Source of the DNA: Candidatus Poribacteria bacterium
GTDB lineage: Bacteria; Poribacteria; WGA-4E; WGA-3G
DNA: 64,000 bases
Assembly (NCBI GenBank): GCA_965214095.1
Contig: OZ243938.1
Location: 512,001-576,000 of the forward strand
Direction: 5' to 3'
Shown: positions 7,300 to 63,951 of the stretch, in pieces
How the letters are laid out: the number at the start of each line of letters is the position of its first letter
Position numbering within the stretch: the first letter of the stretch is position 1
The notes under the pieces: model-generated
Seen by the model: only the letters and a program-made list of their open reading frames with translations
What the model was told of the DNA's origin: nothing
The model's database searches: none
Made by a program: the position numbers and the translations under genes

Positions 7300-7370
7300 A
7301 TACCATTTCTAAAAGATAACTTGTCATTATTAAAATAGGTGTTTGTAATCGTGCAATTCATTGCGCCTCT
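7300..7370. mobile_element. Truncated family-A-type MITE with a degenerate REP
   Basis: Left TIR ATACCATTTCTA, then GTAATCGTGCAATTCATTGCGCCTCTTA matching 38383-38410. No right TIR is visible. Confidence 0.55.
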
Positions 7371-7496
7371 TATATTCTCTGTCTTCGTTTGAAGTCACAA
7401 TCTCATAATGAACTATTCTTTAATAGAATATTGATTGACAAATTTCCATAGAAGCATTAATATATTGTCATTATTTATGCCTATTGGAGGGGAATA

Positions 7497-8348
7497 ATGG
7501 ATAAACTCTCTATTGTTGATACACATGTTCATCTGTGGCATCCTAAGCAACTCAGATATCCATGGCTGAAACAGGTTCCAGCATTAAATAAACCGTATCT
7601 TCTGGAGGATTATTCTGCCGCACACGATAATCTGGAAGTAGAATCCATTGTCTTCGTCCAATGTGACACGCATCCAGATGATGGTCTAAAGGAGACCGCG
7701 TGGGTTACTTCACTTGTCGCTACAGAACCACGTATCAGAGGTATTGTTGCTTGGGCTCCACTTGAAGAGGGTCAACAAGTTGCACCTTTTGTGGAAAAAT
7801 TGGCAGAAGAAAATCTTGTCAAAGGTATCCGTAGACTAATTCAAGGGGAAAGTGTTGATTTTTGTATCCAACCTAACTTTGTGAATGGCGTGAAAACGCT
7901 TGCAAGGTATGGATTGAGTTTTGACATCTGTATCTTTCACCCACAACTTGCTAATGCTATTCGTCTTGTTGAGCAGTGTCCAAATGTCCAATTTGTGTTA
8001 GATCATATTGGTAAACCGGACATCAAAAATCAGTTGTTTGACCCGTGGAAACAAGAACTGAAAACGCTTGCAGAATTTCCGAATGTCCACTGCAAAATCT
8101 CTGGATTGGTAACAGAAGCAGATCAGGAAACTTGGACACCTGCTGATCTACAACCCTATATTGACCATGTAATAGCATGCTTTGGGTTTGGCAGAGTCAT
8201 GTATGGGAGTGATTGGCCCGTATCAACACTTGCATCGGATTATAAACGTTGGGTGCACACATTACAAGTAGCAGTAGCCGGATGTAGTGATGATGAGTTT
8301 AGCAAGTTATTTCACGACAATGCAAAGAGATTCTATAGACTGAAGTAA
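7497..8348 (+). CDS. Amidohydrolase_2 family protein (L-fuconolactonase-like)
   Basis: DTHVHLW, LDHIGKP, CKISGL and YGSDWPV motifs; GGAGG RBS. Confidence 0.88.
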   Translation: MDKLSIVDTHVHLWHPKQLRYPWLKQVPALNKPYLLEDYSAAHDNLEVESIVFVQCDTHPDDGLKETAWVTSLVATEPRIRGIVAWAPLEEGQQVAPFVEKLAEENLVKGIRRLIQGESVDFCIQPNFVNGVKTLARYGLSFDICIFHPQLANAIRLVEQCPNVQFVLDHIGKPDIKNQLFDPWKQELKTLAEFPNVHCKISGLVTEADQETWTPADLQPYIDHVIACFGFGRVMYGSDWPVSTLASDYKRWVHTLQVAVAGCSDDEFSKLFHDNAKRFYRLK

Positions 8349-8399
8349 GCACAGTGTGTAAATATGCACATTACTTTGGTAAATTGCAATCATATCACT

Positions 8400-10586
8400 C
8401 TATTTGTTTCTCTCCTTTACCTCGCGCCTGCGGGGATGTAGCACAAATTCTGTATATCCATTGGGTAACTCGCACCCTTTAAGAACAAGATCTAATGCGG
8501 CTTGGAAGGCAATGCTATCATTATAATTCGGTGACATATTTTGATAGTTTGGGTCATCTGCGTTTTGTTCGTCAACCACCTTCGCCATACGTTGAAAAGT
8601 CTCAGTTACCTGTTCTTTGGATACAATCCCATGATGTAACCAGTTTGCAATATGTTGGCTTGAAATCCGTAACGTTGCACGATCCTCCATCAAACCGATG
8701 TTGTTTATATCAGGTATCTTTGAACAACCGATACCTTGGTCTACCCATCGTACAACATAACCGAGTATTCCTTGTGCATTATTCTCAATCTCACGTTGGA
8801 TTTCCTTCTTAGACAATTCCCTATCTTTCAGTAGTGGAGGGGTTAACAGATCTTTTAAGTTTGCCCGTTCACGTGATGTCAATTCTTCTAATCTTGTAGC
8901 AACATTTACACGGTGATAGTGGATTGCGTGGAGCGTCGCTGCAGTGGGAGAAGGAACCCATGCAGTCGTTGCACCTGCCAACGGATGATTCACTTTTGTA
9001 TCAAGCATCTCTGCCATCTCATCGGGTTTTGTCCACATCCCTTTGCCTATCTGTGAAATCCCAGGTAATCCAGTTTCAATGCCGATGTCAACATTCCAAT
9101 CTTCATAGGCACGCATCCAAGGTTCATTGCGAATGTCCATTTTCGGTATCATCGCATCTGCTTGCATGCTTGTGTGAATTTCATCACCCGTTCTATCTAA
9201 AAATCCAGTATTGATAAAGACAAGTCGTTCAGAGGCAATCCGTAGCACTTCCTTTAGATTGACGGTGGTGCGGCGTTCCTCGTCCATTATACCTATCTTA
9301 ATAGTGTTATTCGGAAGACCAAGTGCTGTTTCTATTCTTTTGAATAAACGAACTGTCATATCAACTTCTTCGGGACCGTGGAATTTCGGTTTCACGATAT
9401 ATATACTACCCGTTTGGCTGTTCTTATATTCTCCGTTGCTATTTATGTCATGCATCGCACCAAATGTAGTCATCATAGCATCCAGAAAACCTTCAGGTAT
9501 CTCCTCTCCATCTGTTGTAATGACCGCATCTGTATACATGTGGAGACCGACATTGCGTATCAGTAACAGGCTTCGTCCGGGCAGTGTGTAGGTGCTTCCA
9601 TCCGTTGATGTCCATGTTTTATCCGAAGTTAATTTTCTGTTGATTGTCTTGCCGTTTTTCTCAAAAGTAGATTCCAATGTGCCTTTCATAATTCCGTTCC
9701 AATTGCTATAGACACGCACCTTATCCTCAGCATCAACAGCAGCAACCGAATCCTCACAATCTTGGATTGTTGTTATAGCAGATTCAAGGATTACATCTAC
9801 AACACCAGCGGGATGCTCTTTACCTATTAGATGATCTCTGTTAATCTTGATTTCTATGTGTAGACCATTATTTTGGAATAGGATTGCACTAAGCTCTCCA
9901 CCTTTTTGCGTGAAGCCAACAAATTTATTGGGTTCTTCTAATCCGGTTTCCTTCCCATCACGAAGTACTGCGTTTAAATGTAAATTGCTGTCAACTTCTT
10001 TGAGTGAAAATTGCTTTATATCTGAATAAGTTCCAGATTCCAGCGAAACAACTTCATCCAAGAACCTCTCTGTGAATTCAATCACCTTTGCACCACGGAT
10101 TGGATTGTAGTTTCCATCACGATCTGCTCCTGCTGATTCGTCAATAACATCTGTTCCGTAAAGGGCATCGTAGAGACTCCCCCAACGTGCGTTTGTTGCA
10201 TTTAATGCATAACGTGCATTATCTAAAGGGACTACTAACTGCGGTCCAGCAATAGATGCAATCTCAGCATCAACATGAGTTGTCGTCACTTTGAAATCAT
10301 CGCCTTCAGGTAGAAGACAGCCGATTTCTTTGAGGAATGTAGAATATTCGTCATAATCAATTGGTTCGTCCTTATGTTCCAAATGCCATGCGTCAATCTG
10401 TTCCTGTATTGTATCACGTTTATCCAATAGAGATCGGTTTTCTGGGGCAAAGTCAGTTACAATGGTATCAAATGCCTTCCAAAACTCGTCCGCACCTATC
10501 CCTGTACCTGGGGCAATTTCATCTCTTACTAATGCATATAATTCTCTATCAATTTTAAGATTCCCGACATCAATCCGCTTTTCCAT
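8400..10586 (-). CDS. glcB: Malate synthase G
   Basis: 728 aa; [44 protein letters not shown] and [13 protein letters not shown] motifs. Confidence 0.97.
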
Positions 10587-10634
10587 GTTATTATTTTCCT
10601 TTGCTATCGTGCATAATTCTATATGATGTATCTT

Positions 10635-10748
10635 ATACCATTTCTAATTGAAAACACCGCATTTTTGTAGCACAAACTGCCAGTTTGTGCAGTCCTTCAA
10701 GACATTCTTAACAAATGCTAATGGTATAAACATTTATAGAAATGGTAT
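10635..10748. mobile_element. Family A MITE-like element (114 bp), copy 1
   Basis: TIR ATACCATTTCTA...TAGAAATGGTAT; internal GTAGCACAAACTGCCAGTTTGTGC hairpin; near-identical copies at 13339 and 37321. Confidence 0.85.
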
Positions 10749-10823
10749 TATGTATGATATATTATCAACAGTTCTATGACGAGTCAATTTGTTTTTGAAA
10801 CGACCTGACCATACCAATTTCCT

Positions 10824-11159: not shown

Positions 11160-11162
11160 TAT

Positions 11163-12206
11163 ATGTACGATTTGGTTACATTTGGTGAAGCCATGATTCG
11201 ACTTACTGCCCCAGAATTTATGCGTTTGGAGCAAGTCTCATCATTATCTATCACTGCGGGTGGTGCGGAAATGAACGTCGCTGTCAACGCAGCACAACTC
11301 GGATTGAAAACCGCATGGGTTTCAAGACTTGTAGATAACTGGTCAGGTCGCTATATTCGCAACAAAGGACAAGAATTGGGAGTAGACATGTCCAACATCA
11401 AATGGGTGGAATTTGATGGCGTTGGATACGAACGGAACGGGTTTTACCATCTTGAAATGGGAGCCGGTCCCAGAGCAAGTAGTGTGACTTATGACCGCGG
11501 GCATTCAGCAATATCAAATGTACAACCCAGTGAGGTAGATTGGGCATCTATCTTTAGCAATGCACGATGGTTTCATCTGAGTGGAATCACACCCGCATTG
11601 TCAGAGTCAGCTGCAGCAGTTTCTGCGGAAGCATTAAAAGCGGCGCGAACAGCAGGAGTCACTACAAGTTATGACCTTAACTTTCGTTCAAAATTGTGGA
11701 ATGCTGAACAAGCACAAGCAGCAAACAAACCAATGATGGAACACGTCTCTGTCCTTATCGGTAATGAGGAAGATTTTGAGAAATCACTCGGTTTTGCTGC
11801 AGAAGGCGCAACCGAATCGTATAGTAAACTTGAACCAGATAGTTACAAAGAGGTAGCAGAAAGAGTCAAAGATGCGTTCCCGAACATAGAGATGATTGGC
11901 ACAACGTTGAGAGATGCAAAAACAGGTTGGTTAAATGACTGGCGGACGCTATTATATGATGGAGACAATTTTTATCTCTCACGTATCTATGAAGATTTAG
12001 AATTGGTGGATAGAGTCGGTGGTGGAGATAGTTTCTCTTCTGGGCTGATCTATAGTCTATTGAATGCGAAATCTCCACAAGATGCAGTTGACTTTGCTGG
12101 TGGCTATTCTGCTTTGGCACATACCTTCCCAGGAGATTTTAACTGGGCAACGGTAGCAGAAGCAGAGAAAGCGATGCAGGCAGGAAGTGTGCGAATCAGT
12201 CGCTAA
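11163..12206 (+). CDS. PfkB-family sugar kinase (2-keto-3-deoxygluconate kinase-like)
   Basis: GEAMIRL, GGAEMNVA, YDLNFRSKLW and DRVGGGDSF motifs. Confidence 0.92.
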   Translation: MYDLVTFGEAMIRLTAPEFMRLEQVSSLSITAGGAEMNVAVNAAQLGLKTAWVSRLVDNWSGRYIRNKGQELGVDMSNIKWVEFDGVGYERNGFYHLEMGAGPRASSVTYDRGHSAISNVQPSEVDWASIFSNARWFHLSGITPALSESAAAVSAEALKAARTAGVTTSYDLNFRSKLWNAEQAQAANKPMMEHVSVLIGNEEDFEKSLGFAAEGATESYSKLEPDSYKEVAERVKDAFPNIEMIGTTLRDAKTGWLNDWRTLLYDGDNFYLSRIYEDLELVDRVGGGDSFSSGLIYSLLNAKSPQDAVDFAGGYSALAHTFPGDFNWATVAEAEKAMQAGSVRISR

Positions 12207-13333
12207 TTCTTCTCAAGTAGGAAAAGAAACTCTCGGTTCGGTTTTTCAGTCGCACTTAACCATTCGTTTGTCCATTTCATACTTGCCATAACATTTCGTT
12301 TATAGTTCACCTCAACAACAGCAAGCAGTTTGCCGTTTGTTTGCATTACCTCGTTGAGTTCTTCAGCAGTTGCACGTCCTCCCGAACTGTATGACAGGAT
12401 GATCCACCGCGCTTGCGTCATCTTGATCAATCTTTCAAGGGCTTCAACAGCAATGAAACGTCCATTGTCATTGCGTCTGAATTCCTCAAATACGGAAGCA
12501 GAGAGTTGATCTGATGTATCCTCACGTCGCTTTGCTTTGCCGAATAGGTTCGGTCTGTCATAGAGGATGATGCTTTTCCATAGATGGTAATATGCCGCAT
12601 ATCTCACACGAGATGGCGGCATCTTTTCGTTGTTTGAACCGTAAGGGGGATCAAAGTATGCAAGATCAACATCAATCTGTGGTACAAGATCAAAGATGTC
12701 AGATCTATGCACTTGATGGTCTCCTTCAGAAATAAAAAGTTTCGGCACTTCAAGCACGAGTTCTTTGTAGGATCGTGGTGACCAATCCTTGAGGTATGCT
12801 GAATAATGTCCGAGTGTACTGTCCACGCGATCCATCCCTAACATCAAACTTGTAAGTGCAACAGCTTTATCAACGGTATCAAGGTTTAGATTCTCAATTT
12901 CGTCACGAATCGCATCTAACTTACGTGTGTTATGTAACTGCCAAGGTTTCTTAAGTCCATCTGCTTGGATTGCAGATCCATCGTTTGAATGTCCACCGTA
13001 ATGTTCTGTGAACCATCCATCTATCGGGGGAACAGCGTTTAGATGATCCATCAGGAGTTGATAGTCAGTTCGTGGCTTTTTGTTGAGAAGGTAGCAAGTT
13101 CCCAATACTTCTGACCAGTGTGCAATGTCGTTGGAGTGGACAGAATAACCGAGTTTTGAAAATGCCTGTGAGACTCGGGTTGTGCCTGAAAAGCCGTCTA
13201 AAATCGTCTTGGCATCAACCTTCTTGGCGAGTTGCAGGATTTGTGGGATGAGTTTTAGTTTGGAACCGGCGTATTTTATACCTTCTGTGGATGGAGTTTC
13301 AGGATTGTATCTCAAATTATGCAATCTTGACAT
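12203..13333 (-). CDS. D12-class N6-adenine DNA methyltransferase
   Basis: IKYAGSKLKL, LDGFSGT and YFDPPY motifs. Start set to ATG 13333 because the longer track ORF begins inside a repeat. Confidence 0.88.
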   Translation of the reverse strand: MSRLHNLRYNPETPSTEGIKYAGSKLKLIPQILQLAKKVDAKTILDGFSGTTRVSQAFSKLGYSVHSNDIAHWSEVLGTCYLLNKKPRTDYQLLMDHLNAVPPIDGWFTEHYGGHSNDGSAIQADGLKKPWQLHNTRKLDAIRDEIENLNLDTVDKAVALTSLMLGMDRVDSTLGHYSAYLKDWSPRSYKELVLEVPKLFISEGDHQVHRSDIFDLVPQIDVDLAYFDPPYGSNNEKMPPSRVRYAAYYHLWKSIILYDRPNLFGKAKRREDTSDQLSASVFEEFRRNDNGRFIAVEALERLIKMTQARWIILSYSSGGRATAEELNEVMQTNGKLLAVVEVNYKRNVMASMKWTNEWLSATEKPNREFLFLLEKN

Positions 13334-13338
13334 TGGTA

Positions 13339-13452
13339 ATACCATCTCTAATAGAAAACGCTGCATTTTTGTAGCATAAACTGTCAGTTTGTGCAGTCCT
13401 TCAAGACATTCTTAACAAATGTTAATGGGATAAACATTTATAGAAATGGTAT
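13339..13452. mobile_element. Family A MITE-like element, copy 2
   Basis: ATACCATCTCTA...TAGAAATGGTAT, 114 bp; supplies the last codons and stop of ORF 13438-13665. Confidence 0.85.
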
Positions 13453-13665
13453 AAGAGTAAGTTCTTTAGCAGTTGCCTTACCTAAAATAGCATCCTGAAT
13501 TAAAGTACTGGCATTCAGAATCTCAATACCGATAAGTTCACCGTTTTCATTCAATTCAGCAGTGATATTGGGGCTAAATTCAAGACTATCTCCTTGTGGT
13601 TCTTCAGAAATAACGAGATGTAATATATCTTCTATGTGAAAATATTTCATTTTTGCTTTATTCAT
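13438..13665 (-). CDS. DUF2283-like small protein
   Basis: YFHIEDILHL...ELNENGELIGIEILNAS pattern; GAGG RBS. Confidence 0.75.
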   Translation of the reverse strand: MNKAKMKYFHIEDILHLVISEEPQGDSLEFSPNITAELNENGELIGIEILNASTLIQDAILGKATAKELTLIPFL

Positions 13666-14667: not shown

Positions 14668-14805
14668 TATAGTAAAAATCATAATTATTTACACACTACG
14701 GTAGGTTCGGTTTCCTAACCGAACCGGTGTTTGTTCAGTCTCATAGATGCGGTTAGGAAACCGCATCTACCGGGGAGTGTGCACGTATTTTTACATTTCA
14801 CTATA
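14668..14805. mobile_element. Family B MITE-like element (138 bp) carrying an inverted REP pair (REPIN-like), copy 1
   Basis: Ends TATAGTAAAA...TTTCACTATA; REPs at 14701-14725 (+) and 14746-14770 (-); near-identical copy at 38415. Confidence 0.85.
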
Positions 14806-14831
14806 ATGAAATCTTTGGTTCTTGGTAAAAA

Positions 14832-18869: not shown

Positions 18870-18972
18870 TATAATGAATTATAAATATAAGTTGACACTT
18901 TCGACCCACGGTAGGCGAGGTTTCCTAACCTCGCCTATGCAGAGTGTTCAAGTAATTTAGAAATCCACTATA
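18870..18972. mobile_element. Family C MITE-like element (103 bp), copy 1
   Basis: TATAATGAATT...AATCCACTATA; single REP GTAGGCGAGGTTTCCTAACCTCGCC; copies at 23181, 53083 and 56262. Confidence 0.85.
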
Positions 18973-23180: not shown

Positions 23181-23283
23181 TATAGTGAATTATAAATATA
23201 AATTGACACTTTCGCCCCCCGGTAGGCGAGGTTTCCTAACCTCGCCGATGCAGAGTGTTCAAGTAATTTCAAAATCTACTATA
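23181..23283. mobile_element. Family C MITE-like element, copy 2
   Basis: TATAGTGAATT...AATCTACTATA, 103 bp; overlaps the 3' end of the gene at 23259. Confidence 0.85.
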
Positions 23284-24011
23284 AAATGTTTATGGACTTT
23301 TCCTACAAAGAATGGACCGAGAGATTCTATATACTTTGTCGTCTGCTCTGTTTTCCGCATATCTTGAATCAGTCGTGACAGGGGATATAATTCTTTTCCA
23401 ACTAAACCGATAACAAACTCATTGTCATTCGTATCTAAACCGAAGCAAGCCAAACGTATGTCACTGGCATAACTTCCAGCAGCATAACTTCGTCCAAGCA
23501 TCGCATGTTCACCAAGAATTCTACCACGATCAGATGGATCCAGTTGATAAAAATCTGGTCTTCGTCGGAGAGGATACCAAATCGCCCACGGAAAGTCTGG
23601 GTTGAGGACATTGTTGCGCGGTTTGTTGATAAGCCATTCTTCCAAATTAGGTTCTCTTCCACTTGAATAGGTGCGTCCTATCATCGTCATTTCTGGACGA
23701 TATGTGAGGTGACAATTGGCTATTAGACTCTTTAATGAAATTCGGGAACTGGTCATTAATGTTGCAGGGTCTTGAGCCATAAAAAGCACACCAACTCCCG
23801 TTGGGTGATTTAGATCGTCGTATAGAACCTTATTTGATTTTCCCTTACCAAGTGTCTCAATTACACTTGTTGGATCGTGACAATCTTTGAATACATGGAG
23901 TTGAAAGTACAGCCTCTGATCACTATATTGTGGTTCTCCATCAATAGGAGCACCCATCTCACGTATATCTACTGGTTCGGGACGTTTTGGTCTAGTTGGT
24001 TTGGATTGCAT
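23259..24011 (-). CDS. Chlorite dismutase/coproheme decarboxylase (ChdC/HemQ) family protein
   Basis: WYPLRR...FYQL...RILGEHAMLG...FGLDTNDNEFV...MRKTE...GPFFVG. Confidence 0.82.
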   Translation of the reverse strand: MQSKPTRPKRPEPVDIREMGAPIDGEPQYSDQRLYFQLHVFKDCHDPTSVIETLGKGKSNKVLYDDLNHPTGVGVLFMAQDPATLMTSSRISLKSLIANCHLTYRPEMTMIGRTYSSGREPNLEEWLINKPRNNVLNPDFPWAIWYPLRRRPDFYQLDPSDRGRILGEHAMLGRSYAAGSYASDIRLACFGLDTNDNEFVIGLVGKELYPLSRLIQDMRKTEQTTKYIESLGPFFVGKVHKHFIVDFEIT

Positions 24012-25626: not shown

Positions 25627-25903
25627 AGTTATACATTTATGGTAAAGTATAAAATTACATCTACCCTTTCTATCCACAGTAGGTGAGGTTTCCTAACCTC
25701 GCTTAATCTTTTCGGAATTCATAGTTATACATTTATGGTAAAGTATAAAATTATATCTACACTTTCTATCCACGGTAGGCGAGGTTTCCTAACCTCGCTT
25801 AATCTTTTCGGAATTTATAGTTATACATTTATGGTAAAGTATAAAATTATATCTACACTTTCTACCCACGGTAGGCGAGGTTTCCTAACCTCGCTTAATC
25901 TTT
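25616..25903. repeat. Tandem repeat, 3 x 96 bp, each unit containing a GTAG REP
   Basis: Units start with TCGGAATT at 25616, 25712 and 25808; each contains GTAGG(C/T)GAGGTTTCCTAACCTCGC. Confidence 0.92.
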
Positions 25904-27445
25904 GACATTCGCATAAAAGAACGGCGGCATAGTTAATGCCACAACATCATCTTCTCCAGAGATTTCACGTGCCATTGCGAGTGCATCATCCAAGTTCTTT
26001 GCCCATTCCACTCCTAAACGTTGTGCCACTCTCGGTTCTTTCGGTCCAACCAAAATCACTTTTGACAAATACTTTAACGGATAAGTTGCCCAATACCAGA
26101 CGGTAAATGGATGAAAACCGTGATGGGCATACTTGTTGCGATAACAATCAATTAAATACTCGTCTTTTGCGTATTTTTCCTGATACTTCTGCTGCATTTC
26201 AAACGGTTCGGTTGTATCCTCCAACACTTCTTCATAGAACATCTTATATGCCACGTGATATTCCTCGTGAAATATCTCATAAGTTGGATTCATTATGATA
26301 ACAACCCCATTCTCTTTTATTATCGGTTTGTTGTAGAACCAATTGAACACATATCCCAATATGTCACTTACAACCAAAACTGGATTGATTCGCGCATCGA
26401 CCGCATAAGGACTCATATCGGGTAAGCCAAACACTAAGGTACTATATTGTCGTGGAATATCTATGGCTAACTGATCCTTCATCAAGGCAAGTGTTTCTGC
26501 GTGCACCGCATCAATATCACCTGCATTAACTGCCATCGGTTCGTAGTCTGTCTGCACACTCTTTAGTATATTATACCTTACTGATTCTGGCAATATGGAT
26601 AAGGTAAGTGGAGTGAAGGCTTTTACAACCTTTTCAACGATGTTGCAGTCTTTATTCGGTTTTCCAACATAACGGAGGTGGAACGGATAAATAGCACCAT
26701 TCATAGCCGCTTCAAGAACAAAAACCGGAGTCTCTTTCTGAATAAGTCGACTCATCCGCTCAATACAAGCGTGCATATTTGAACCTTCAGGTTGCATCAC
26801 ATGTGGACAATCAGATGTCATGTGGGGAGAGTGATGCGGCGCGATGGAGTTATATGTGCCAAGTCCTACTGCAACAGATTTATGACCACCATTCAACGGA
26901 ATTTGTATCATATCAACATATATAATCAGATCCACATCAAGCGCAGATTTATCTGTCTCAACGACTTCGTCCTGTTCTGTTTTCCCCACTTCAACAATCT
27001 GTTCAGCATCCTCAGCGTCAAAATTACGAAGTTGATGAGGATAGAACTCATCCATGATGTCTTTCCCTAACATATACTCAAGTTCATGTTCCTTCATTTT
27101 ACGATGAAGCGCAACAGCACACATGAGTTCTATATTCTTCTTTTCTACACCATACTCATACAACAACTTCAAAAGTGTTTCAGTCATGATTTGACGTAGA
27201 TCAGGTTTCTTGGTCGCAGGAAAAGGTTGGCAATTGTCATCAAAAAGGATAAGAACTTTTGAATTTCCGTCTACGAGTTCTCGTAACGGAGGCATGTCAA
27301 GTGGGTTTTCAAAAGCTTGTTGTGTCTGTTCACTGAGTGCAGCACGTTTGATACCTGGAATTGGAGGTTTTGCAAAAAATACGTCTGAGTTATCAGGTAT
27401 TTTTGCATTGACAAGATGGTTGCCGAAGTATGTGAAGTATTTCAT
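25895..27445 (-). CDS. Lactate racemase (LarA/DUF2088) domain protein
   Basis: PLDMPPLRELV...LILFDD...AVALHRKM...GGHKSV pattern of the LarA N-terminal domain. Confidence 0.75.
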   Translation of the reverse strand: MKYFTYFGNHLVNAKIPDNSDVFFAKPPIPGIKRAALSEQTQQAFENPLDMPPLRELVDGNSKVLILFDDNCQPFPATKKPDLRQIMTETLLKLLYEYGVEKKNIELMCAVALHRKMKEHELEYMLGKDIMDEFYPHQLRNFDAEDAEQIVEVGKTEQDEVVETDKSALDVDLIIYVDMIQIPLNGGHKSVAVGLGTYNSIAPHHSPHMTSDCPHVMQPEGSNMHACIERMSRLIQKETPVFVLEAAMNGAIYPFHLRYVGKPNKDCNIVEKVVKAFTPLTLSILPESVRYNILKSVQTDYEPMAVNAGDIDAVHAETLALMKDQLAIDIPRQYSTLVFGLPDMSPYAVDARINPVLVVSDILGYVFNWFYNKPIIKENGVVIIMNPTYEIFHEEYHVAYKMFYEEVLEDTTEPFEMQQKYQEKYAKDEYLIDCYRNKYAHHGFHPFTVWYWATYPLKYLSKVILVGPKEPRVAQRLGVEWAKNLDDALAMAREISGEDDVVALTMPPFFYANVKD

Positions 27446-27563
27446 TATAGAAATCTATTATTGTTATTATATTGTATAATTACTATGATCTGAATTTTTA
27501 CCTATTTTAGCACAATTAGAGGAACAGTGCAAGATTATTTTCGTTATACCAGTGCCTCCAATC

Positions 27564-27785
27564 CAGGGTTATTTAGTTTTAAGTATTTTCCAAAATAGAG
27601 ATTTGCTAAAAGTTAATACCCAAGAAGGTAGGTGCGGTTTCCTAACCGCACCGGAACCCACAAGAAAACTGACTATGAAAGGTTTTAGCACAAAGCCGGT
27701 TCGGTTAGGAAACCGAACCTACCGGCCTGGGGCATTTAGCATTTGTGAAAAAAGGACAAGAATTACCGAAAACTAAATAACCTTG
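27564..27785. mobile_element. Family E MITE-like element (222 bp) with a 9-bp target-site duplication
   Basis: TIR CAGGGTTATTTAGTTTT...AAAACTAAATAACCTTG; flanking direct repeat CCTCCAATC at 27555-27563 and 27786-27794; inverted REPs at 27628-27652 and 27698-27722. Confidence 0.9.
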
Positions 27786-27802
27786 CCTCCAATCATTAAC
27801 TT

Positions 27803-28669: not shown

Positions 28670-30094
28670 ATGAAGCAAAAATCCGCTTTCCCAATTTACA
28701 AACCAGAATATCAAGATCATCCAGATTCAAGGTTGATTGCACAACCTTCTGACATGAGTGTACGTGCCACGGAAATTAAAAATCGTATGGCGCGTAAAGT
28801 CTTTATTGAAACTTACGGGTGTCAGATGAATGTCAGTGATAGCGAACTAATGGCTGGAATCTTAACACAATCTGGACACCAAACTGTTTCCGATATTGAA
28901 GATGCGGATGTTATCTTACTCAATACTTGTGCTATTCGTGAAAACGCTGAAACGAAAGTCATCAACCGCCTTGAACATCTAAATTATCGGAAACGCAGAG
29001 AAAGTAATCTTGTTATCGGTGTTTGTGGATGTATGGCACAACATCTGCGAGACAAACTTCTGGAAGCAGCACCCTATGTTGATATTATAATGGGACCTGA
29101 CGCATATCGGAATCTGCCGATGGCACTGAATGCAGTAGTCAGCGGAGACCCATATCTCGGTCTACAGTTGGACAAGGGTGAAGACTATGCTGATATATCA
29201 CCAATACGTAAAGAAGGTATCCGAGCATGGCTCACAATTCAACGCGGATGCGATAAAATGTGCACCTTTTGCATTGTTCCCTTTGTTCGTGGGAGAGAGC
29301 GGAGCATACCTCTAAATATATTGAAAGATGATGTTGAGAGACTTGTAGATGAAGGTTTCAAAGAGATTGTACTACTTGGGCAAACAGTCAACTCCTATCA
29401 TGATGGAAAACACGATTTCGGTGAACTGCTCTGGTCAATGGCTGAAGTAGAAGGTATTGAACGTGTGCGATTTACATCACCACACCCAGCAGATGCAACT
29501 GACAGTATGATAGATGCAATGGAGAATTCTCCTAAGGTCTGCAAACAACTCCACCTACCATTACAATCCGGTTCAACTCAAGTATTAGAACGTATGCGAC
29601 GAACATACACCGCAGAAGAATATCGCAAACTCGTTTACAAACTCAGGGAACGTATACCACAAATCGCACTTTCAACAGATGTAATCGTTGGCTTTTGTGG
29701 CGAAACAGAAGAAGATTTCAACAAAACCTACACCTTAATGGAAGAAATCCAATTTGATTCTGCATTTATGTTCAAATACTCTGATCGGGATGGCACATTA
29801 GCAAATAAAATGTTGGATGACGATGTGCCAGAATCAGAAAAATCGCGTAGGTTAAATGAGATTATCACACTTCAAGAGCAAATTTCCGCTGAAATCAATC
29901 AAACAAAGGTAGGAACTACTGTACCTGTTTTGGTCGAAGGAAATAGCAGGCGTGACAACGAACAATATTATGGAAAATCTGATACATTCAAAACTACAGT
30001 GTTCCCAAAGGAAAACGCACAGATAGGTGACATCGTCAACGTTGAAATCCATTCTGCTACTGCACATACATTGATTGGTCAGATTGTACGGTGA
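28670..30094 (+). CDS. miaB: tRNA-2-methylthio-N6-dimethylallyladenosine synthase
   Basis: ETYGCQMNVSDSE, LNTCAIRE, GCDKMCTFCIVP, RGRERS and RFTSPHP motifs; C-terminal TRAM domain. Confidence 0.95.
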   Translation: MKQKSAFPIYKPEYQDHPDSRLIAQPSDMSVRATEIKNRMARKVFIETYGCQMNVSDSELMAGILTQSGHQTVSDIEDADVILLNTCAIRENAETKVINRLEHLNYRKRRESNLVIGVCGCMAQHLRDKLLEAAPYVDIIMGPDAYRNLPMALNAVVSGDPYLGLQLDKGEDYADISPIRKEGIRAWLTIQRGCDKMCTFCIVPFVRGRERSIPLNILKDDVERLVDEGFKEIVLLGQTVNSYHDGKHDFGELLWSMAEVEGIERVRFTSPHPADATDSMIDAMENSPKVCKQLHLPLQSGSTQVLERMRRTYTAEEYRKLVYKLRERIPQIALSTDVIVGFCGETEEDFNKTYTLMEEIQFDSAFMFKYSDRDGTLANKMLDDDVPESEKSRRLNEIITLQEQISAEINQTKVGTTVPVLVEGNSRRDNEQYYGKSDTFKTTVFPKENAQIGDIVNVEIHSATAHTLIGQIVR

Positions 30095-30194
30095 ATTCAC
30101 ATAGGTTATCTATAACCGCCTTTTCATATTAAGTTCGCTATGTGGGTATCACATAGAAGTAAATGAAGAAGATTTCTCTCAAGGGATTACAACT

Positions 30195-31055
30195 ATGGCT
30201 CATGTATGGAGAAAAGAACAGAAAGACAACAGCAGAATCCTTGATAAGTTTTACACGAAACACGAGGTAGTCAAAAGGTGTTTAGATGAAGTCCATAAAC
30301 TACCTTACACCTATGACTGCGTGATAGAACCTTCTGCGGGGAACGGGGCTTTTTATCAGAATATTGAACATCATACTAAAATAGGAATTGATATTGATCC
30401 GCAACATGATGAGATTATCAAAGGTGACTGGTTCAATTACAAAATTAGTGAAGTTTACGAATGTGTATTAGTTATAGGGAATCCCCCGTTCGGTCAATAT
30501 CAGAAACACTCTTCAAACTTTATATCTCATGCTATCTCATTTCGTAATGTTCAAACGATTGCTTTTATTCTACCAGATGTTTATAGAAAACATACACAGC
30601 AAAAAATATTGCCTTATGATTGGAGAATAGTCTCCATCACTGAATTAGGAAGGAATTGCTTCACATTAGATGGAAAGGATTATCATGTACCAGCGAGTTT
30701 TTTTATCTTTGATAAATCAAAAGGAAAAGATTTAAGAGTTAATCCAAATGCCTACACAGAAACAAACGATTTTAAATTCTCCAATAAAGATGATTTTGAC
30801 ATATTTGTATTTGGTGCTTCCCCAAAAAGAATTACAAAAAATCCAACACCAAACAATAGAGGGTACTTCCTTAAGTCGAAAATTCCAGTAGAAGATTTAA
30901 TATCGCGAATCAAAGCAGTTGATTGGAATGGAAATTCTTGTGCAAATGGTGGCGTATATTGGCTAACAAAATATGAATTTTTGGAGCAATATATAAAATG
31001 CCATGAACCAGATAGAGTTAAAGAAAGTCAGAGAAGTTTATTCGATCTTCTATAG
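30195..31055 (+). CDS. Amino (N6A/N4C) DNA methyltransferase
   Basis: DKFYT, IEPSAGNGAF and IGNPPFG motifs. Confidence 0.8.
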   Translation: MAHVWRKEQKDNSRILDKFYTKHEVVKRCLDEVHKLPYTYDCVIEPSAGNGAFYQNIEHHTKIGIDIDPQHDEIIKGDWFNYKISEVYECVLVIGNPPFGQYQKHSSNFISHAISFRNVQTIAFILPDVYRKHTQQKILPYDWRIVSITELGRNCFTLDGKDYHVPASFFIFDKSKGKDLRVNPNAYTETNDFKFSNKDDFDIFVFGASPKRITKNPTPNNRGYFLKSKIPVEDLISRIKAVDWNGNSCANGGVYWLTKYEFLEQYIKCHEPDRVKESQRSLFDLL

Positions 31056-31103
31056 CGCAAATGTGTTAAGAAAAAACTTCCGACATTTTCACTAGTAAAC
31101 GCC

Positions 31104-31682: not shown

Positions 31683-31695
31683 AAGTATTTACTTT

Positions 31696-38336: not shown

Positions 38337-38583
38337 ATACCATTTCCAATTAAGAATATACCATTAATGAAATCGCTTGTTCGTAGTCGCGCAATTCATT
38401 GCGCCTCTTACATTTATAGTAAAAACCATAAATATTTACACACTACGGTAGGTTCGGTTTCCTAACCGAACCGGTGTTTGTTCAGTCTCATAGATGTGGT
38501 TAGGAAACCGCATCTACCGAGGAGTGTGCACGTATTTTTACATTTCACTATAAAAAAGTGCAAATCATTTTTAGAATTGGTAT
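38337..38583. mobile_element. Family-A-type shell containing a nested family B element
   Basis: ATACCATTTCCA...TAGAATTGGTAT with REP GTAGTCGCGCAATTCATTGCGC at 38383-38404; interrupted by 38415-38552. Confidence 0.75.
38415..38552. mobile_element. Family B MITE-like element, copy 2
   Basis: 138 bp, nearly identical to 14668-14805. Confidence 0.85.
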
Positions 38584-38601
38584 TACGTTTATTCTATTGG
38601 C

Positions 38602-40044: not shown

Positions 40045-40172
40045 TTTTCATTCCTCCAGAGGTTTTGTGTATATTTGTTATTAGTTACATTTATTGATAG
40101 TTTCTCATGCTAGGGGTTCACTTAAACGTATACCTTGATTACATTCTCCATAAATTGAAAGAGTGATTATAT

Positions 40173-40278
40173 TATAGTAAAGTTTAGAATTAAGAAGACA
40201 TTTCAATGCACTTTCAAATTACACAAGTCCCGTAGGGGCGAGGTTGCCTCCCCCTCTGAGGTGTGTCCTATTAATAGT
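40173..40278. repeat. Degenerate TATAGT-ended element with a REP
   Basis: TATAGTAAAG left end; GTAGGGGCGAGGTTGCCTCCCCC at 40232-40254; right end unclear. Confidence 0.5.
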
Positions 40279-42594: not shown

Positions 42595-42726
42595 CTAGTA
42601 GAATGTCCATTCTTATATTGTAGGTCGGGTAGAGGGACGACACCCGACTTTATTGATGATAAATGGCTGCATGTCGGGTTTCGTGCCTCTACCCGACCTA
42701 CAAGATTTGTGTAGACAAACCACTAG
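42595..42726. mobile_element. CTAG-ended element carrying an inverted REP pair
   Basis: Imperfect TIR CTAGTAGAATGTCCA...TAGACAAACCACTAG; REPs GTAGGTCGGGTAGAG...ACCCGAC at 42620-42648 and inverted at 42673-42701. Confidence 0.7.
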
Positions 42727-48926: not shown

Positions 48927-49076
48927 TAAGCAATTTTACTGCTTTGTAATTATACCTTGAATTCCGTTGAATTGCACCAAATTTTTCAAGACCTACAAAT
49001 CTCAATATTTAACCGACATTTCTATCGTAATATTCATTGTCGCAACAGCACATGTTGAATGAAAATTAAGTTCTTA

Positions 49077-49317
49077 ATTGGGTAATTCTCATTTTCTCAA
49101 ACCCGGTAGGTTCGGTTTCCTAACCAAACCCTATGTGTCAAGTTATGAGAAATTACGCAATAATCCCTGGCCGGTAGGTTCGGTTTCCTAACCAAACCAT
49201 AGGTGTCAAGTTATGAGAAATTACGCAATAATCCCTGGCCGGTAGGTTCGGTTTCCTAACCGAACCGGACATCTCAAGGAAATTACTCGGTCAGATGTCT
49301 CAAATTTGACACATAGG
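49077..49317. repeat. Tandem REP array, 68-bp period, three REPs
   Basis: CCGGTAGGTTCGGTTTCCTAACC at 49103, 49171 and 49239; the first unit is bounded by the inverted repeat ATTGGGTAATTCTCAT...ATGAGAAATTACGCAAT. Confidence 0.88.
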
Positions 49318-53082: not shown

Positions 53083-53185
53083 TATAGCGAATTATAAATA
53101 TAAGTTGACACTTTCGACCCACGGTAGGCGAGGTTTCCTAACCTCGCCTACGCAGAGTGTTCAAGTAATTTCAAAATCTACTATA
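53083..53185. mobile_element. Family C MITE-like element, copy 3
   Basis: TATAGCGAATT...AATCTACTATA, 103 bp. Confidence 0.85.
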
Positions 53186-53209
53186 ACACAAAATTCAGGA
53201 TAGAAGCAG

Positions 53210-54487: not shown

Positions 54488-54577
54488 TACCAAATTAACC
54501 TAAATCGTAGGGGCAGGGTTCCCCTGCCCGCCCGTGTTTTCAGCATCAAAAACAATACAGATCTCGTTAATTTGGTA
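54488..54577. mobile_element. 90-bp TIR element with a single REP
   Basis: Perfect 12-bp TIR TACCAAATTAAC...GTTAATTTGGTA; GTAGGGGCAGGGTTCCCCTGCCC at 54507-54529. Confidence 0.75.
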
Positions 54578-54605
54578 TTAGAACTCTACCGTATAAAGGC
54601 TAATT

Positions 54606-56261: not shown

Positions 56262-56364
56262 TATAGTAAATTATGAATAAAAGTTGACACTTTCACCCCA
56301 CGGTAGGCGAGGTTTCCTAACCTCGTCGATGCAGAGTGTTCAAGTAATTCCAAAATCTACTATA
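56262..56364. mobile_element. Family C MITE-like element, copy 4
   Basis: TATAGTAAATT...AATCTACTATA, 103 bp. Confidence 0.85.
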
Positions 56365-56393
56365 TACAAGTATTTATGGAGAATATCAGTTGC

Positions 56394-59962: not shown

Positions 59963-60511
59963 TCATTTAGTTGGTTGATATGTCGATAATTGACGATGAA
60001 CTTCAGGTAGTGCCCCGTTTTTTAGCCAAGTAATTGGTTGTTCTTCTGTTGTCCGTTCAGGATTTACCCAGATGATGTACCGGATTTCCCTAACTTGGCG
60101 TGATGCGTAAGCGAAAAGTGATCGGATGGTCTCGTCAAGTGAAACGATTGTTTTATCAGTTTGCATTGCCGCTTCAAGAAGATGCATATCTTTTTGTATT
60201 GCTTCAGTATCATCCTCATTGTCGGTTGTTTTGGCAATCTTGTCTTGGAGTTCTCTACTTTCTGGTGGATTTATACGAACCACTTTTCTACGTGCATCCA
60301 TTGACAACCGCCACCTTCTGGCAAAACGGGATTGATGTTGTTTCCATTCATCACTAATTTTATTGGTCATTACAAGTTTATGATTCTCTGATCTAACCAC
60401 TATTAGGAAATCACGACAATTAACAGCACGCGGGTGCGTCGCTGTTTCGCTGCCGGCGGCTTGGGCAACATCCGCGTCAATAACCAATTGTTTTGTATCG
60501 GTATGCCTCAC
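59963..60511 (-). CDS. PIN-like domain protein
   Basis: LVIDADV...E...KDMHLLEAA...IVSLDE acidic pattern; coupled to the upstream ATPase. Confidence 0.6.
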   Translation of the reverse strand: MRHTDTKQLVIDADVAQAAGSETATHPRAVNCRDFLIVVRSENHKLVMTNKISDEWKQHQSRFARRWRLSMDARRKVVRINPPESRELQDKIAKTTDNEDDTEAIQKDMHLLEAAMQTDKTIVSLDETIRSLFAYASRQVREIRYIIWVNPERTTEEQPITWLKNGALPEVHRQLSTYQPTK

Positions 60512-61812
60512 TCTACCTCCGATTGCCCAAATCTAAGTTTGTCTACGGCATCAAGATAACGACTCTCCGTTCTGAGATCCACCTCATCAAAATCTACAGG
60601 CCACTCACCGTAAGTGCCTGCTTCATCTAAATCAACGCTGTCAATCTTAGTAATACCATCTTTGTTACGTGAAAACCAGTGCAGCTTGACTAAATCTGGC
60701 GACAGTTTGCCTTCTGCAACGAGTGTTTGTATCCCCAATAGTAATAATGAACTGTGTGTTTCAGCAACAACCCGTACACCACGTTTTGCTGCATCAGCTA
60801 ACACTTGCGCTAACTTGACTTGTGCGTTAGGATGTAAATGAAGTTCCGGCTGTTCAATATAAACTAATTGACCTGGTTCTGCAGCTATCAGTGCCACTAC
60901 AACAGGTAGAACTTGTGAAATTCCGAATCCTACATCAACAATATTAACCATGTCTACGTCACTCATGTTGCGGCGAGTCAGGCGACTAACCTGAATTTCA
61001 ACACCAACATCACCGATCTTTTTTGCACTGACTCGTCCTGTCAATTCAAGAGTATAAAGTGAATCTAACAACGTTCTTAAGCGTTTATCTCCGGTTTCCT
61101 GCCATTCGTGGATAATGCTTGCCATATAGTGTTCAAACGTGCCGTGATACCGTGGCCCTGTACTACTTAGTTTGTATAAACGTTCAGGATTTCCACGTAA
61201 TCCAAGTAGGTGAATGGTATCGCTGATGTATTGGCCAAAACCAGAGGTGGCTTCATAGAATTTATTGCTATCAAGCGATCCAATATACAAGAAACAACGT
61301 GATCGCTTCACTATATTATAACCATTAATAGACGAATCTTGATTGACTAATAACTTGATTTCATCAGGAGACATGCCTGGATGCAAAGTAAAATTTTGAG
61401 GAAAAGATGATTGATCAATCTCAAAATTAGTTTTCTTGCTCATTTCAACAATTTCAATCCCATTTTTCCGTTTTCTGAAGGTCGTTCCGATAGAGATAAA
61501 CATTTCAGAAACACAAGTCTCTACCTGAACCTGAAATTGATCTGTCTGTGTTTCATTCTTTAGTTTTGACAAAAATTGTTCTGCAAAAGTAAACCGGACG
61601 TTTGGTCCATCAATCAACAAAGGTCCAGGATCATACGGTGCCTCCAATGTCTGCTTTAACATCAATAACGGCTGCATTATACTGGATTTTCCAGAACTAT
61701 TGGCACCAACAAGAATCGTTAAGGGGAGGATGTCAATTTGACATTCTTCCACAATTGATTTAAAACCTTTTACAGATATCTTGGTTATGCCTTTATCTCT
61801 TTTACTCAACAT
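60508..61812 (-). CDS. ABC/AAA_15-21-type ATPase with a DUF3696-like C-terminus
   Basis: GFKS, GANSSGKS, VGFGISQVLP, IEQPELHLHP, ETHS and G...EWP motifs; no TM segments. Confidence 0.88.
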   Translation of the reverse strand: MLSKRDKGITKISVKGFKSIVEECQIDILPLTILVGANSSGKSSIMQPLLMLKQTLEAPYDPGPLLIDGPNVRFTFAEQFLSKLKNETQTDQFQVQVETCVSEMFISIGTTFRKRKNGIEIVEMSKKTNFEIDQSSFPQNFTLHPGMSPDEIKLLVNQDSSINGYNIVKRSRCFLYIGSLDSNKFYEATSGFGQYISDTIHLLGLRGNPERLYKLSSTGPRYHGTFEHYMASIIHEWQETGDKRLRTLLDSLYTLELTGRVSAKKIGDVGVEIQVSRLTRRNMSDVDMVNIVDVGFGISQVLPVVVALIAAEPGQLVYIEQPELHLHPNAQVKLAQVLADAAKRGVRVVAETHSSLLLLGIQTLVAEGKLSPDLVKLHWFSRNKDGITKIDSVDLDEAGTYGEWPVDFDEVDLRTESRYLDAVDKLRFGQSEVE

Positions 61813-61980: not shown

Positions 61981-62168
61981 CACGGTTATTTAGTTTTCGG
62001 TTTTTCTGCTGTATTTTCACATTTCAATATAACCACCTGTAGGTCGGGTAGAGCTTGCGAAACCCGACACGTCTGGTATATGTCGGGTTTCGCAAGCTCT
62101 ACCCGACCTACGACATAAACTCTCAGTAACGTTCATCAACTGAAAATTATTAGAACTAAATAACCCTG
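61981..62168. mobile_element. Family E MITE-like element (188 bp), copy 2
   Basis: TIR CACGGTTATTTAGTTTT...AGAACTAAATAACCCTG; flanks ATATCTGCC / ATATGTGTC (7/9 match); inverted REP pair at 62039-62068 and 62082-62111. Confidence 0.85.
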
Positions 62169-62364
62169 ATATGTGTCAAGAATGGCACAAGTGTTTGGAG
62201 ATTTTAGGAATAGAAAAACGATTGATACAACTTGTGCAAGTTCAAAATAATTTTTCCTTGACTAATTTTGTAAATCTGTTATATTAATATCATAAATCAT
62301 TTCAGTAAGCACATCATCATTACTGGCAGATTTTCATTATTATACCTGAGGAGGAACTACTAAG

Positions 62365-63768
62365 ATGACCCGTTTTTTACCCGGTTTCGTTCAAAAAATA
62401 GATCGGAACCACATTATCATACTCTTACTTGGCATACTACTCATACCGAATATCGGTTGTTTAGGCGGCGTTAGCCTCGTGCCGTTGAGTGCGAAAATTC
62501 AGAATGCTGATAATACCTTTGAACAAGCAGAAGCTGTTTCAACACGATCAGATGATGCAAGTGAAAAAGAAAAAGCAGTAGCGAAACAGAAAAAACTATA
62601 CGATTCAGCATTATCACACTATCTTGAAATAATTGAAAAAGATGTTAAAGGGAAATATGCACAACGCTCCCACTATCAGATAGCAAAAATATACAAGAAA
62701 TACTATGAGTGGGATAAGGCGAATGAGCACTATCAAGCAATCGTTGATCTTGCACCGACCGGATATTATGCTAGTGAAGCAAAAACTGGTATTGCGAACA
62801 TTCGTAAGAACCGTGCATTAATACAGACCGAATTGGCAAATTACCAGAACTATAAAGCTTTATATGACACCGAACCCTCTCAAGAATCTTATGATATTGC
62901 TGCTGAATCTTTATACAAGGTCGGTCAATCGTACGAAGCTTTAGAAAACTATACAGAAGCGATCATTACTTATGAGAGATTAGTTTCTGAGTTTCCAGAA
63001 CACGAAAAAGCAGTACAAGCACAATTACGAGTTGGGAATATCTATTTTTATGATTTATATGATTATACCAATTCCGGTGGATGGGGGGCATTTGTTGCTG
63101 TTGCACAAAAATTCCCTGATACTTTTGAAGCACAAGAAGTTGTTAAAGACCTAAACCAAACTGAAAGCTTATTGAAAGAAATCAAAAATCTTCAGGATGA
63201 AATTCATCGGAACAAAAGTGTAAAGGCGAAGCAGTTTGAAGAAATGGGGAGATATGTACTACCCTCAGAGAAATACATTCAAGGTAAAGCTGATTTGATT
63301 GTACAGAATTACCAACAAATTGCACGAAATTGGGAGAAACTACGTAACTACCCGAATGCAATAGAAACAAATAAAGTGCTAATTGCTGATCTGTCTCATA
63401 AGAAATTTGCTGTTGCTGATGCTCTCTACAAAGTCGGGGTACTCTACCAACAAAACGGACAGTATGAACGTGCAATTGAAGCGTATGAAGACTTGCTTCA
63501 AAATGCACCAGAATCAATCTGGCGGAATGAAGCCGCCTATCAACAGGCAATTTGCTACCGCGCTATTCGTGAATTCCGTTCTGCCTACGAAGGTTTCAAG
63601 ACTTATATGAGCCTTACAAAAGGAGAAACTCCACATCAACGTGAGGCACAACAGATTATTCGGCAGTTTGAACTAGATCAAGACCAAGATGGATTTATGT
63701 TTTATGAAGAACAAGAGGAAGGCACTTCCGACCAGGACCCAAATTCTTATCCTGGAGCAGAAAAATAA
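62365..63768 (+). CDS. TPR-repeat (lipo)protein
   Basis: GAGGAGG RBS; hydrophobic leader ending NIGC; multiple A-x-Y-x-x-G/A...A...Y...P repeats. Confidence 0.85.
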   Translation: MTRFLPGFVQKIDRNHIIILLLGILLIPNIGCLGGVSLVPLSAKIQNADNTFEQAEAVSTRSDDASEKEKAVAKQKKLYDSALSHYLEIIEKDVKGKYAQRSHYQIAKIYKKYYEWDKANEHYQAIVDLAPTGYYASEAKTGIANIRKNRALIQTELANYQNYKALYDTEPSQESYDIAAESLYKVGQSYEALENYTEAIITYERLVSEFPEHEKAVQAQLRVGNIYFYDLYDYTNSGGWGAFVAVAQKFPDTFEAQEVVKDLNQTESLLKEIKNLQDEIHRNKSVKAKQFEEMGRYVLPSEKYIQGKADLIVQNYQQIARNWEKLRNYPNAIETNKVLIADLSHKKFAVADALYKVGVLYQQNGQYERAIEAYEDLLQNAPESIWRNEAAYQQAICYRAIREFRSAYEGFKTYMSLTKGETPHQREAQQIIRQFELDQDQDGFMFYEEQEEGTSDQDPNSYPGAEK

Positions 63769-63828
63769 GAGTGGTTTGACACATAAGAAACAAGAATGTT
63801 AGTCAAACAAGTTCGTTAAATTATATGT

Positions 63829-63951
63829 TATAGTAATTGCAAAAATATGTGCCATAGGCATCAATTTAGGGGAATAACGCTATAATCCCACGCCGGTAGG
63901 TTCGGTTTCCGAACCTACCGTAGTGTGTAAATAATTGCGGTTTCTGCTATA
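63829..63951. mobile_element. Family-B-related element (inverted) with a collapsed REP pair
   Basis: TATAGT...GCTATA ends; the right arm is a close reverse-complement match to the family B left arm; central GGTAGGTTCGG-TTT-CCGAACCTACC. Confidence 0.72.

Follow-up and report, generated by a model that had tools for sequence, protein, structure and literature searches.

The window, by which we mean the whole analysed stretch of 64,000 nucleotides (G000:C1:512001-576000), comes from the 5.2-Mb, 41% G+C genome of a Candidatus Poribacteria bacterium, here called G000. Its intergenic gaps hold short elements in which GTAG-tagged hairpins, of the type known as repetitive extragenic palindromes (REPs), lie between terminal inverted repeats like those seen in miniature inverted-repeat transposable elements, or MITEs. 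We refer to the outer arms of such an element as its shell and to the enclosed hairpins as its cargo; the hairpin families are numbered REP-1 to REP-7, and inverted doublets of them (REPINs) are numbered alike. Comparisons were made among 31 genomes: G000, 18 other congeners and 12 genomes of other genera. Our reading, to which we assign a probability of about 0.7, is that REPs and REPINs became nested in MITEs of the DDE transposase type and were amplified with them as composites, and that the record left in G000 is mostly fossil.

Repeat elements of the window

A first-pass annotation had counted about 30 GTAG hairpins in intergenic DNA, and our census supports that count. Requiring a GTAG tag, a perfect stem of at least 6 and a loop of 3-14, we found 26 hairpins, 22 of them in or beside intergenic gaps; the four inside open reading frames (ORFs) look like chance occurrences. 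About eight imperfect copies (at 7344, 13371, 40232, 49106, 49174, 53124, and 63896 on both strands) give a total of around 30. Repeats with at least three BLAST matches elsewhere in the genome are present in 20 of the 27 gaps of at least 60 bp between long ORFs, and GTAGGTNCGG occurs nine times in the window against an expected 0.13. No transposase family matched any of the 56 window ORFs scanned, just as had been remarked, and Rfam gave no match in the window. The elements are listed below, with lineages predicted from their tips.

7300-7430 (+): A-type shell of the IS630 lineage (tip ATACCATTTC); a variant of the REP-3 core lies at 7344-7376, and the right tip is degenerate; coverage in tiers of 65-78, 134-149 and 20 matches
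10634-10750 (+): A-type MITE with REP-4 (hairpin 10667-10690); 45 near-full copies of median identity 94.7%, even coverage of 50-59
13340-13453 (+): second copy of the A-type MITE with REP-4, found by sequence inspection
14668-14808 (+): B element, TATAGT-tipped, IS630 lineage, with inverted REP-1 hairpins at 14701-14725 (+) and 14744-14770 (-); 77 near-full copies in the genome
18870-18975 (+): C element, TATAGT-type, with a single REP-1 of CGAGG stem at 18911-18937
23181-23284 (+): C element with REP-1 at 23222-23246; 91 near-full copies in the genome
25636-25905 (+): tandem array of period 96, left half of a TATGGT-tipped shell plus REP-1, hairpins at 25679, 25775 and 25871
27555-27794 (+): shell E, an ISAs1-family MITE (27564-27785) holding a REPIN of two inverted REP-1 copies, flanked by the 9-bp duplication CCTCCAATC (27555-27563 and 27786-27794)
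37320-37436 (+): A-type MITE with REP-4 (hairpin 37353-37376)
38338-38585 (+): A-type MITE with REP-3 (38383-38404), in which a B element is nested at 38414-38553
40170-40278 (+): TATAGT-type left arm with REP-5, GTAGGGGCGAGG at 40232, no right tip; its tip resembles that of the degraded IS630 copy of G000
42595-42726 (+): CTAG-bounded shell, IS630 lineage, with REPIN-2 at 42620-42648 (+) and 42673-42701 (-)
49060-49285 (+): ATGAAGATT-type left arm followed by three REP-1 units 68 bp apart, units 1 and 2 directly adjoined 3' by an IS4-tip-like motif
53083-53187 (+): C element with REP-1
54490-54580 (+): shell with tip ATACCAAATTAAC, of an IS630 lineage intact in a congener, with REP-6 at 54507-54529
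56262-56366 (+): C element with REP-1 at 56303-56325
61981-62168 (+): shell E with REPIN-2 at 62039-62068 (+) and 62082-62111 (-); 9-bp duplication imperfect (6 of 9)
63853-63955 (+): chimera in which a palindromic REP-1 stands between an IS4-like-tipped arm and the inverted left arm of B (flank cluster L9)

The shell sizes first proposed were about right, A measuring 114-117 bp, B 138-141 bp and C 103-105 bp in the window. Almost all hairpins had been placed inside shells with terminal inverted repeats; this needs correcting for the arrays at 25636-25905 and 49060-49285, which lack a right-hand inverted repeat, and for the solo hairpin at 14834. The particular pairings of shell and cargo that had been pointed out are all present: shell E holds REP-1 at 27564 and REP-2 at 61981; the REP-2 pair recurs at 42595, where the shell is of the CTAG type; GTAGGTTCGG is found in B at 14701 and 38448, in E on the minus strand at 27713, and again in the 49-kb array; and A shells at 7300 and 10634 hold two unrelated REPs. 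The BLAST depth across 27564-27785 rises in layers from about 45 in the outer arms through 170-190 in the inner doublet to 350-415 in the hairpin cores.

Tips of the E type lie at 5846 (+), 27564 (+), 27773-27785 (-), 61981 (+) and 62156-62168 (-). The first of these, which falls outside the range annotated at first, is a left tip with no right partner; after it, within 5846-6140, comes another family of repeats, based on AATCCTGGTTCAGAC. That family gives 120-140 BLAST matches genome-wide and is also found in shell-less clusters together with REP-3 and REP-7.

REP families and their enzymes

GTAG is not the leading tag within the window, where AGAT stands before 28 hairpins and GTAG before 26, because weak AT-rich hairpins abound there. 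Its enrichment is visible only genome-wide, among multi-copy hairpin classes: in the printed consensus sequences that we inspected, GTAG/CTAC lies at the stem base in 24 of the 30 exact classes with at least five copies. The REP-1 core is 22 bp long, with a constant loop and co-varying stems. Its loop octamer occurs 1019 times in the genome, 678 times with at least five of seven stem pairs, and CGGTA precedes 535 of these 678 hairpins. The stems fall into the classes GGTTCGG (296), GGCGAGG (123), GGTGCGG (89) and GATGCGG (87), and an identical 22-mer is shared by 246 copies. Other tagged families are REP-2 (122, in doublets), REP-3 (164), REP-4 (57), REP-5/6 (34) and REP-7 (52). REPINs are present for REP-1, REP-2 and REP-7. 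Amid unrelated flanks, the modules of REP-3 (38 bp) and REP-7 keep edges that are sharp and constant.

REP-1 is present in 17 of the 18 other congeners and in 7 of the 12 genomes of other genera. Exact matches number 604 in G000, the most in any of the 31 genomes, with 483 in G006, 311 in G003 and none for a reversed-pattern control. The first-pass annotation had taken the hairpins for REPs of the kind processed by REP-associated tyrosine transposases (RAYTs), and in this it was correct: congeners G017 and G012 carry RAYT genes, for which NF047646 (cut-off 80) gives 123 and 116.9 bits, and because these genes sit between inverted REP-1-type hairpins we conclude that the hairpins are true RAYT-type REPs.

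The families resemble the GTAG REP/REPIN-RAYT systems described in the literature (Nunvar 2010; Bertels and Rainey 2011; Di Nocera 2013, PMC3733652), with their 5' GTAG hairpins in hundreds of copies, inverted doublets, several families per genome and a RAYT between inverted REPs, the last seen here in the congeners. They differ from such systems in that G000 is without a RAYT and yet has the most REP-1 of the 31 genomes, and in that many copies lie in DDE-type MITE shells. REPIN populations are described as shrinking and decaying after the loss of their RAYT by Bertels and Rainey (bioRxiv 10.1101/2021.07.10.451892).

The search for a RAYT flanked by the same REPs succeeded in the congeners but not in G000. 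We searched G000 with the PF01797 and NF047646 profiles and by tblastn with four congener RAYTs; the best NF047646 score was 28.8 bits (cut-off 80), and tblastn gave nothing better than E = 0.007. PF01797 matched at five places, namely the four copies of an 1826-bp IS200/IS605 insertion sequence (IS) and one 5'-truncated gene of 108 amino acids. Both were considered and rejected, the IS200/IS605 element as the REP enzyme, its end hairpins being unrelated to any REP, and the truncated gene as the REP-1 enzyme, its congener orthologues being flanked by non-GTAG hairpins of the CGCTCCGCTGGAGCG type.

The truncated gene, which is Y1 transposase-like and lies at G000:C1:2666096-2666422 (L005 1522-1848), is of some interest in itself. 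Its full-length orthologues in congeners, of about 160 amino acids, lie between arrays of CTATAnACA...CGCTCCGCTGGAGCG hairpins, which form a second, non-GTAG hairpin system of the order; only about five such hairpins are left in G000.

We also compared strand orientation with replication direction, setting origin and terminus from GC skew alone. No strand bias relative to skew-inferred replication or to flanking genes was found for C, B, C', REP-3, REP-4 or REP-7, which is weak evidence in keeping with double-strand cut-and-paste. REP-3 does show a raw imbalance genome-wide (102 plus, 58 minus), explained neither by skew-inferred replication direction (73/87) nor by the direction of flanking genes (50/55).

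Shell families and autonomous partners

Judged by their tips, the shells are DDE-type MITEs of three families, IS630, ISAs1 and IS4. This bears out the earlier proposal that DDE transposition mobilised them, which gains further from exact 9-bp duplications around shell E and from one whole-shell empty allele, described below. Within the IS630 group, the tips of shell A match elements L072, L068 and L069, and those of the ATGAAGATT shell match L073 and L074, all intact in congeners; the TACCAAATTAAC shell (T, the one with tip ATACCAAATTAAC) matches L071 of a congener over 30-nt arms at 90%. The TATAGT shells (B, C and others) match L033, which is the degraded sole IS630 copy of G000. The CTAG shell resembles L077, intact in a congener, a match made by eye and less sure. 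The ends of A, B and C read T/TA...TA/A, with no longer duplication.

The tips of shell E are those of a 1327-bp ISAs1-family element in G013 (L082 101-1427), which encodes a 387-amino-acid ISAs1-family transposase (217.5 bits); the E tip was found in 18 of 18 congeners. Exact 9-bp duplications flank 7 of 17 and 5 of 8 full copies of shell E, and 13 of 40 pairs by manual count. ISAs1 elements make duplications of 8-10 bp.

The third family centres on an IS4-family element of 1491 bp, present in 13 copies of 98.3-100% identity, with 16-bp tips, duplications of 20-22 bp and a transposase scoring 80.4 bits on PF01609 and 195.4 bits on NF033592. Ten of the 13 copies duplicate exactly the REP-1 hairpin. 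Duplications usual for the IS4 family are 9-12 bp, and those of this element exceed them. IS4-type tips number 159 in the genome, 78 of which abut a REP-1 loop, and MITEs with such tips enclose REP-1 doublets.

None of the autonomous IS loci L068-L082 contains a REP-1 match, which makes the cargo foreign to the elements from which the shells derive. Two other derivations were discarded. One copy of a 1.6-kb IS4 element with B ends had suggested that B might be a deletion derivative of it, which we reject because only 2 of the 13 copies sit in B and the IS has tips of its own. A 1060-bp IS5-family element was considered as a source of shell C and dropped, since it really ends in AGACATTATAATG and makes 3-bp duplications.

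The search for transposases with matching inverted repeats was likewise answered mainly outside G000: intact IS630 and ISAs1 partners exist in congeners, but in G000 there are only the IS4 element and the degraded IS630. The best ISAs1 transposase match in G000 scores 20.4 bits (cut-off 70). The sole IS630 match, 9 kb beyond the window, scores 81.8 bits (cut-off 100) and is interrupted by internal stop codons and a frame break. Congeners G001, G006, G007 and G003 have 25-53 IS630-family transposase matches per genome against this one broken copy, a striking contrast in transposon load within one genus.

Interchange of shell and cargo was claimed at the outset, and it proved to depend on the level at which one looks. 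At the level of shell type it is real: REP-3 or REP-4 is found in A shells, TATAGT shells may enclose REP-1, REP-3 or REP-5, and the 40 E-shell pairs hold REP-1 (19), REP-2 (10), REP-7 doublets (4) or REP-4 (1), with two short forms and four unexamined. Across the E subfamilies the left and right arms align (one row of the alignment running in the opposite orientation) and the centres differ, with REPIN-1, REPIN-2 and REPIN-7 in a common central slot; in the two short E shells that slot retains GTAGGT or GGTAGGTGCGG. Within amplified families, by contrast, the cargo hardly varies. Of 93 copies with C arms, 79 have the CGAGG stem; of 103 with the B left arm, 98 have TTCGG; and there is close pairing between flank clusters of the two sides (L1 with R0, for example, in 89 of 93). 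We conclude that cargo is interchangeable between shell types and fixed within each amplified family.

Evidence on the mobile unit comes from assembled contigs of related strains. In run X2 one contig, which is 93-96% like the window, has just 13 letters between 42583 and 42726, where the window has 142. The whole CTAG shell with its REPIN-2 is therefore absent there, and the shell was the mobile unit at 42595; to within one base, the edges of the empty site are those expected if TA was duplicated within a CTAG target. For this one element, then, the empty-site boundaries fall at the inverted repeats, as had been anticipated for shells in general. The X2 run also lacks 25636-25828, two units of the 96-bp array. 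At shell E and at the A/B composite, each of the four runs has its contigs interrupted and gives no verdict; the X5 joints come from paralogous copies. No paralogous empty site was found among the 77 copies of B, and orthologous spacers around the B site in nine congeners were unalignable, coding identity there being only 72-85%.

In place of 40143-40270, the 128-bp TATAGT/REP-5 remnant, the X2 contig has 1106 letters, a size that fits a full IS630-family element. Elsewhere, 30086-31689 (1.6 kb, with ORFs 30195-31055 and 31104-31682, neither with a Pfam match) is represented by 78 letters in a related-strain contig, and is a strain-specific insertion or deletion. Two genes of the window adjoin REP-bearing MITEs, one encoding a D12-class adenine DNA methyltransferase (12203-13366) and the other an AAA ATPase with weak matches to defence-system ATPases (60508-61812; 34 bits on MADS3). 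Outside the window, contig C2 of G000 (32,066 bp) has 64% G+C against 41% for the chromosome and is probably foreign or contaminant DNA.

Proposed nested composites weighed against other explanations

The reading that we prefer can be set out as follows. The hairpins are REPs and REPINs that bear the GTAG tag and fall into at least seven sequence families, of a kind moved by RAYT tyrosine transposases. The shells are MITEs formed from DDE transposon ends: those with the IS630 tips ATACCATTTC, ATACCAAATTAAC, TATAGT, CTAG and ATGAAGATT would use a TA target, shell E stems from ISAs1 with its 9-bp duplication, and a third type comes from an IS4 element, with duplications of 20-22 bp, landing in the REP-1 hairpin. 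The interior of each MITE is a REP or REPIN rather than DNA of the parent element, and the nested composite would be copied as a single unit by a DDE transposase. Copying of this sort would account for the fixed junctions in each family, the duplications at the shell tips and the whole-shell empty allele. If so, MITE-borne copying, not RAYT activity, would have made most of the REP-1 copies in G000. By flank clustering, 319 of the 678 copies have B, C or C' arms on their 5' side and 140 adjoin an IS4-type tip; the remainder have an E-inner arm (42), a ATGAAGATT arm (26), a small cluster (7) or no clustered flank (144). Apart from the IS4 element, the record in G000 would be largely fossil. Cargo may have entered the shells by RAYT-type insertion, by capture at the birth of the MITE, or by recombination at REP cores, and chimeras such as 63853-63955 show that recombination has had some part.

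Several findings count against this reading. It had been expected that most REPs would be flanked by inverted-repeat pairs, and a strict two-sided motif test places only 355 of 1066 REPs within an intact pair; REP-7 is almost always solo, with 1 of 52 in such a pair, and the 164 REP-3 copies divide into 42 with two A tips, 23 with two TATAGT tips, 8 with mixed tips, 57 with a tip on one side and 34 with none. This shortage of pairs, like the fixity of cargo within each amplified family, goes part of the way towards the outcome that was to refute the first-pass reading. The scarcity of intact pairs, the solo REP-7 and the 34 shell-less REP-3 copies imply that shells have not been the sole means by which REPs spread. 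In the IS630-type shells, a TA duplication is statistically inseparable from the palindromic tips, and the sole clean empty allele was seen in contigs assembled from a strain that is 93-96% alike. As for the short E shells, both may be either deletions or empty slots. Copies have a median identity of 85-95% to the window copy, so that the bursts are not recent, and the similarity among B copies is no lower in a congener than inside G000, which precludes dating the bursts relative to the loss of the RAYT. Finally, the assembly scores as 94.5% complete, so that genes missing from it are not proof of absence.

The strongest of the alternatives, which we consider unlikely although it deserves serious attention, is that the mosaic, like BIME-type mosaics (see below), is the product of recombination, gene conversion or template switching wherever REP cores and palindromes are shared, or that REP-rich filler was captured when MITEs were born by faulty gap repair, with no REP-specific insertion into shells. 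The chimera at 63853-63955, in which an IS4-type-tip arm is joined to an inverted B arm across a palindromic REP-1, is readily understood in this way, as are five L5-R0 hybrids and the eight REP-3 copies whose two tips differ in type, A on one side and TATAGT on the other. The differing cargo of shell E takes in 10-25 nt beside each REPIN, and the shell-less clusters of REP-3, REP-7 and other repeats also fit such a mosaic. However, the sharp constant edges of REP-3 (38 bp) and REP-7 fit a discrete inserted unit better, and three unrelated REPINs fill one central slot of E.

The first-pass annotation favoured a two-tier system, which in its strongest form would be active in G000 now, with RAYT-type enzymes placing REPs into MITEs and DDE transposases moving the shells. 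The RAYTs of congeners flanked by REP-1, the 246 REP-1 copies with an identical 22-mer, and a short E shell that keeps GTAGGT where the filled form has REPIN-2 all speak for it. We nonetheless regard present activity as improbable, and that part of the proposal finds no support: G000 has no RAYT above threshold and no detectable ISAs1 transposase, its sole IS630 is broken, and C, B, REP-3 and REP-7 show no strand bias relative to skew-inferred replication direction. Least probable is the idea that the hairpins are cis-acting transposon parts (binding sites for a transposase or host factor) inherited by MITEs rather than independent REPs; diverged A-shell subfamilies do keep their tips and REP-3 core while the arms drift, the pattern expected of sites needed in cis, but autonomous IS630 and ISAs1 copies in congeners have neither REP-1 nor any such hairpin beside their inverted repeats, the same REPs occur solo and flank RAYT genes, and one core is found in shells of different transposase families.

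Nested REP-MITE composites have partial counterparts elsewhere. The bacterial interspersed mosaic elements (BIMEs) of Escherichia coli are mosaics of REPs and other short motifs in limited patterns, some of them in tandem arrays, and the G000 elements similarly combine REPs with other motifs in limited mosaic patterns. BIME motifs, unlike the G000 shells, have no transposon ends, terminal inverted repeats, target duplications or autonomous partner; the window elements have inverted repeats and duplications. RUP of Streptococcus pneumoniae is a MITE of the IS630 family with a TA target. The IS630-type shells are similar to it in length (about 100-140 bp), in sharing inverted repeats with IS630, in their TA-type ends, in high copy number and in intergenic position; they differ in belonging to five IS630 lineages in G000, in having a REP or REPIN interior and in lacking a working IS630 transposase. 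RUP is listed among MITEs in PMC3184786.

Insertion sequences that target REPs are known from PMC3184786 and PMC12288879, which name IS1397, IS621, IS1594 and ISPpu9. The IS4 element resembles these in inserting preferentially into a REP; they belong to the IS3 or IS110 family, whereas the G000 element is of the IS4 family, duplicates a whole 22-bp hairpin and has MITE derivatives that carry REP-1 doublets. In Pseudomonas putida and P. fluorescens, according to Di Nocera 2013, degenerate GTAG-1 units combine with unrelated stem-loops into larger inverted repeats, in hundreds of copies; unlike the G000 shells, these composites flank tyrosine-transposase genes and not DDE transposon ends. A full-text literature search, which covered neither supplements nor most subscription papers, returned accounts of GTAG REPs, REPINs, MITEs and REP-targeting IS elements and no account of REPs as regular MITE cargo.

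We put forward a wider interpretation only tentatively, since we think it somewhat more probable to be wrong than right: that REPs can outlive their own RAYT inside DDE-mobilised MITEs, that the centre of a MITE serves as a reusable REPIN slot, that a REP population may therefore go on growing, in G000 to the largest size among the 31 genomes, after loss of the RAYT thought to be needed for its upkeep, and that the REP-1 hairpin, as the target preferred by the IS4 element, travels inside that element and its MITEs and is multiplied with every insertion.

REPINs and MITEs are usually treated as separate non-autonomous kinds, with different enzymes, copying rates and fates, and current theory expects REPINs to decay after their RAYT has gone. 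The presence of most REP-1 copies in MITE shells from three DDE families, together with the highest copy number of the set in a genome without a RAYT, suggests a second route by which REPs spread, and the case is testable because the matching transposases and RAYTs are intact in congeners. For annotation, it also means that repeat finders would wrongly split or merge these families.

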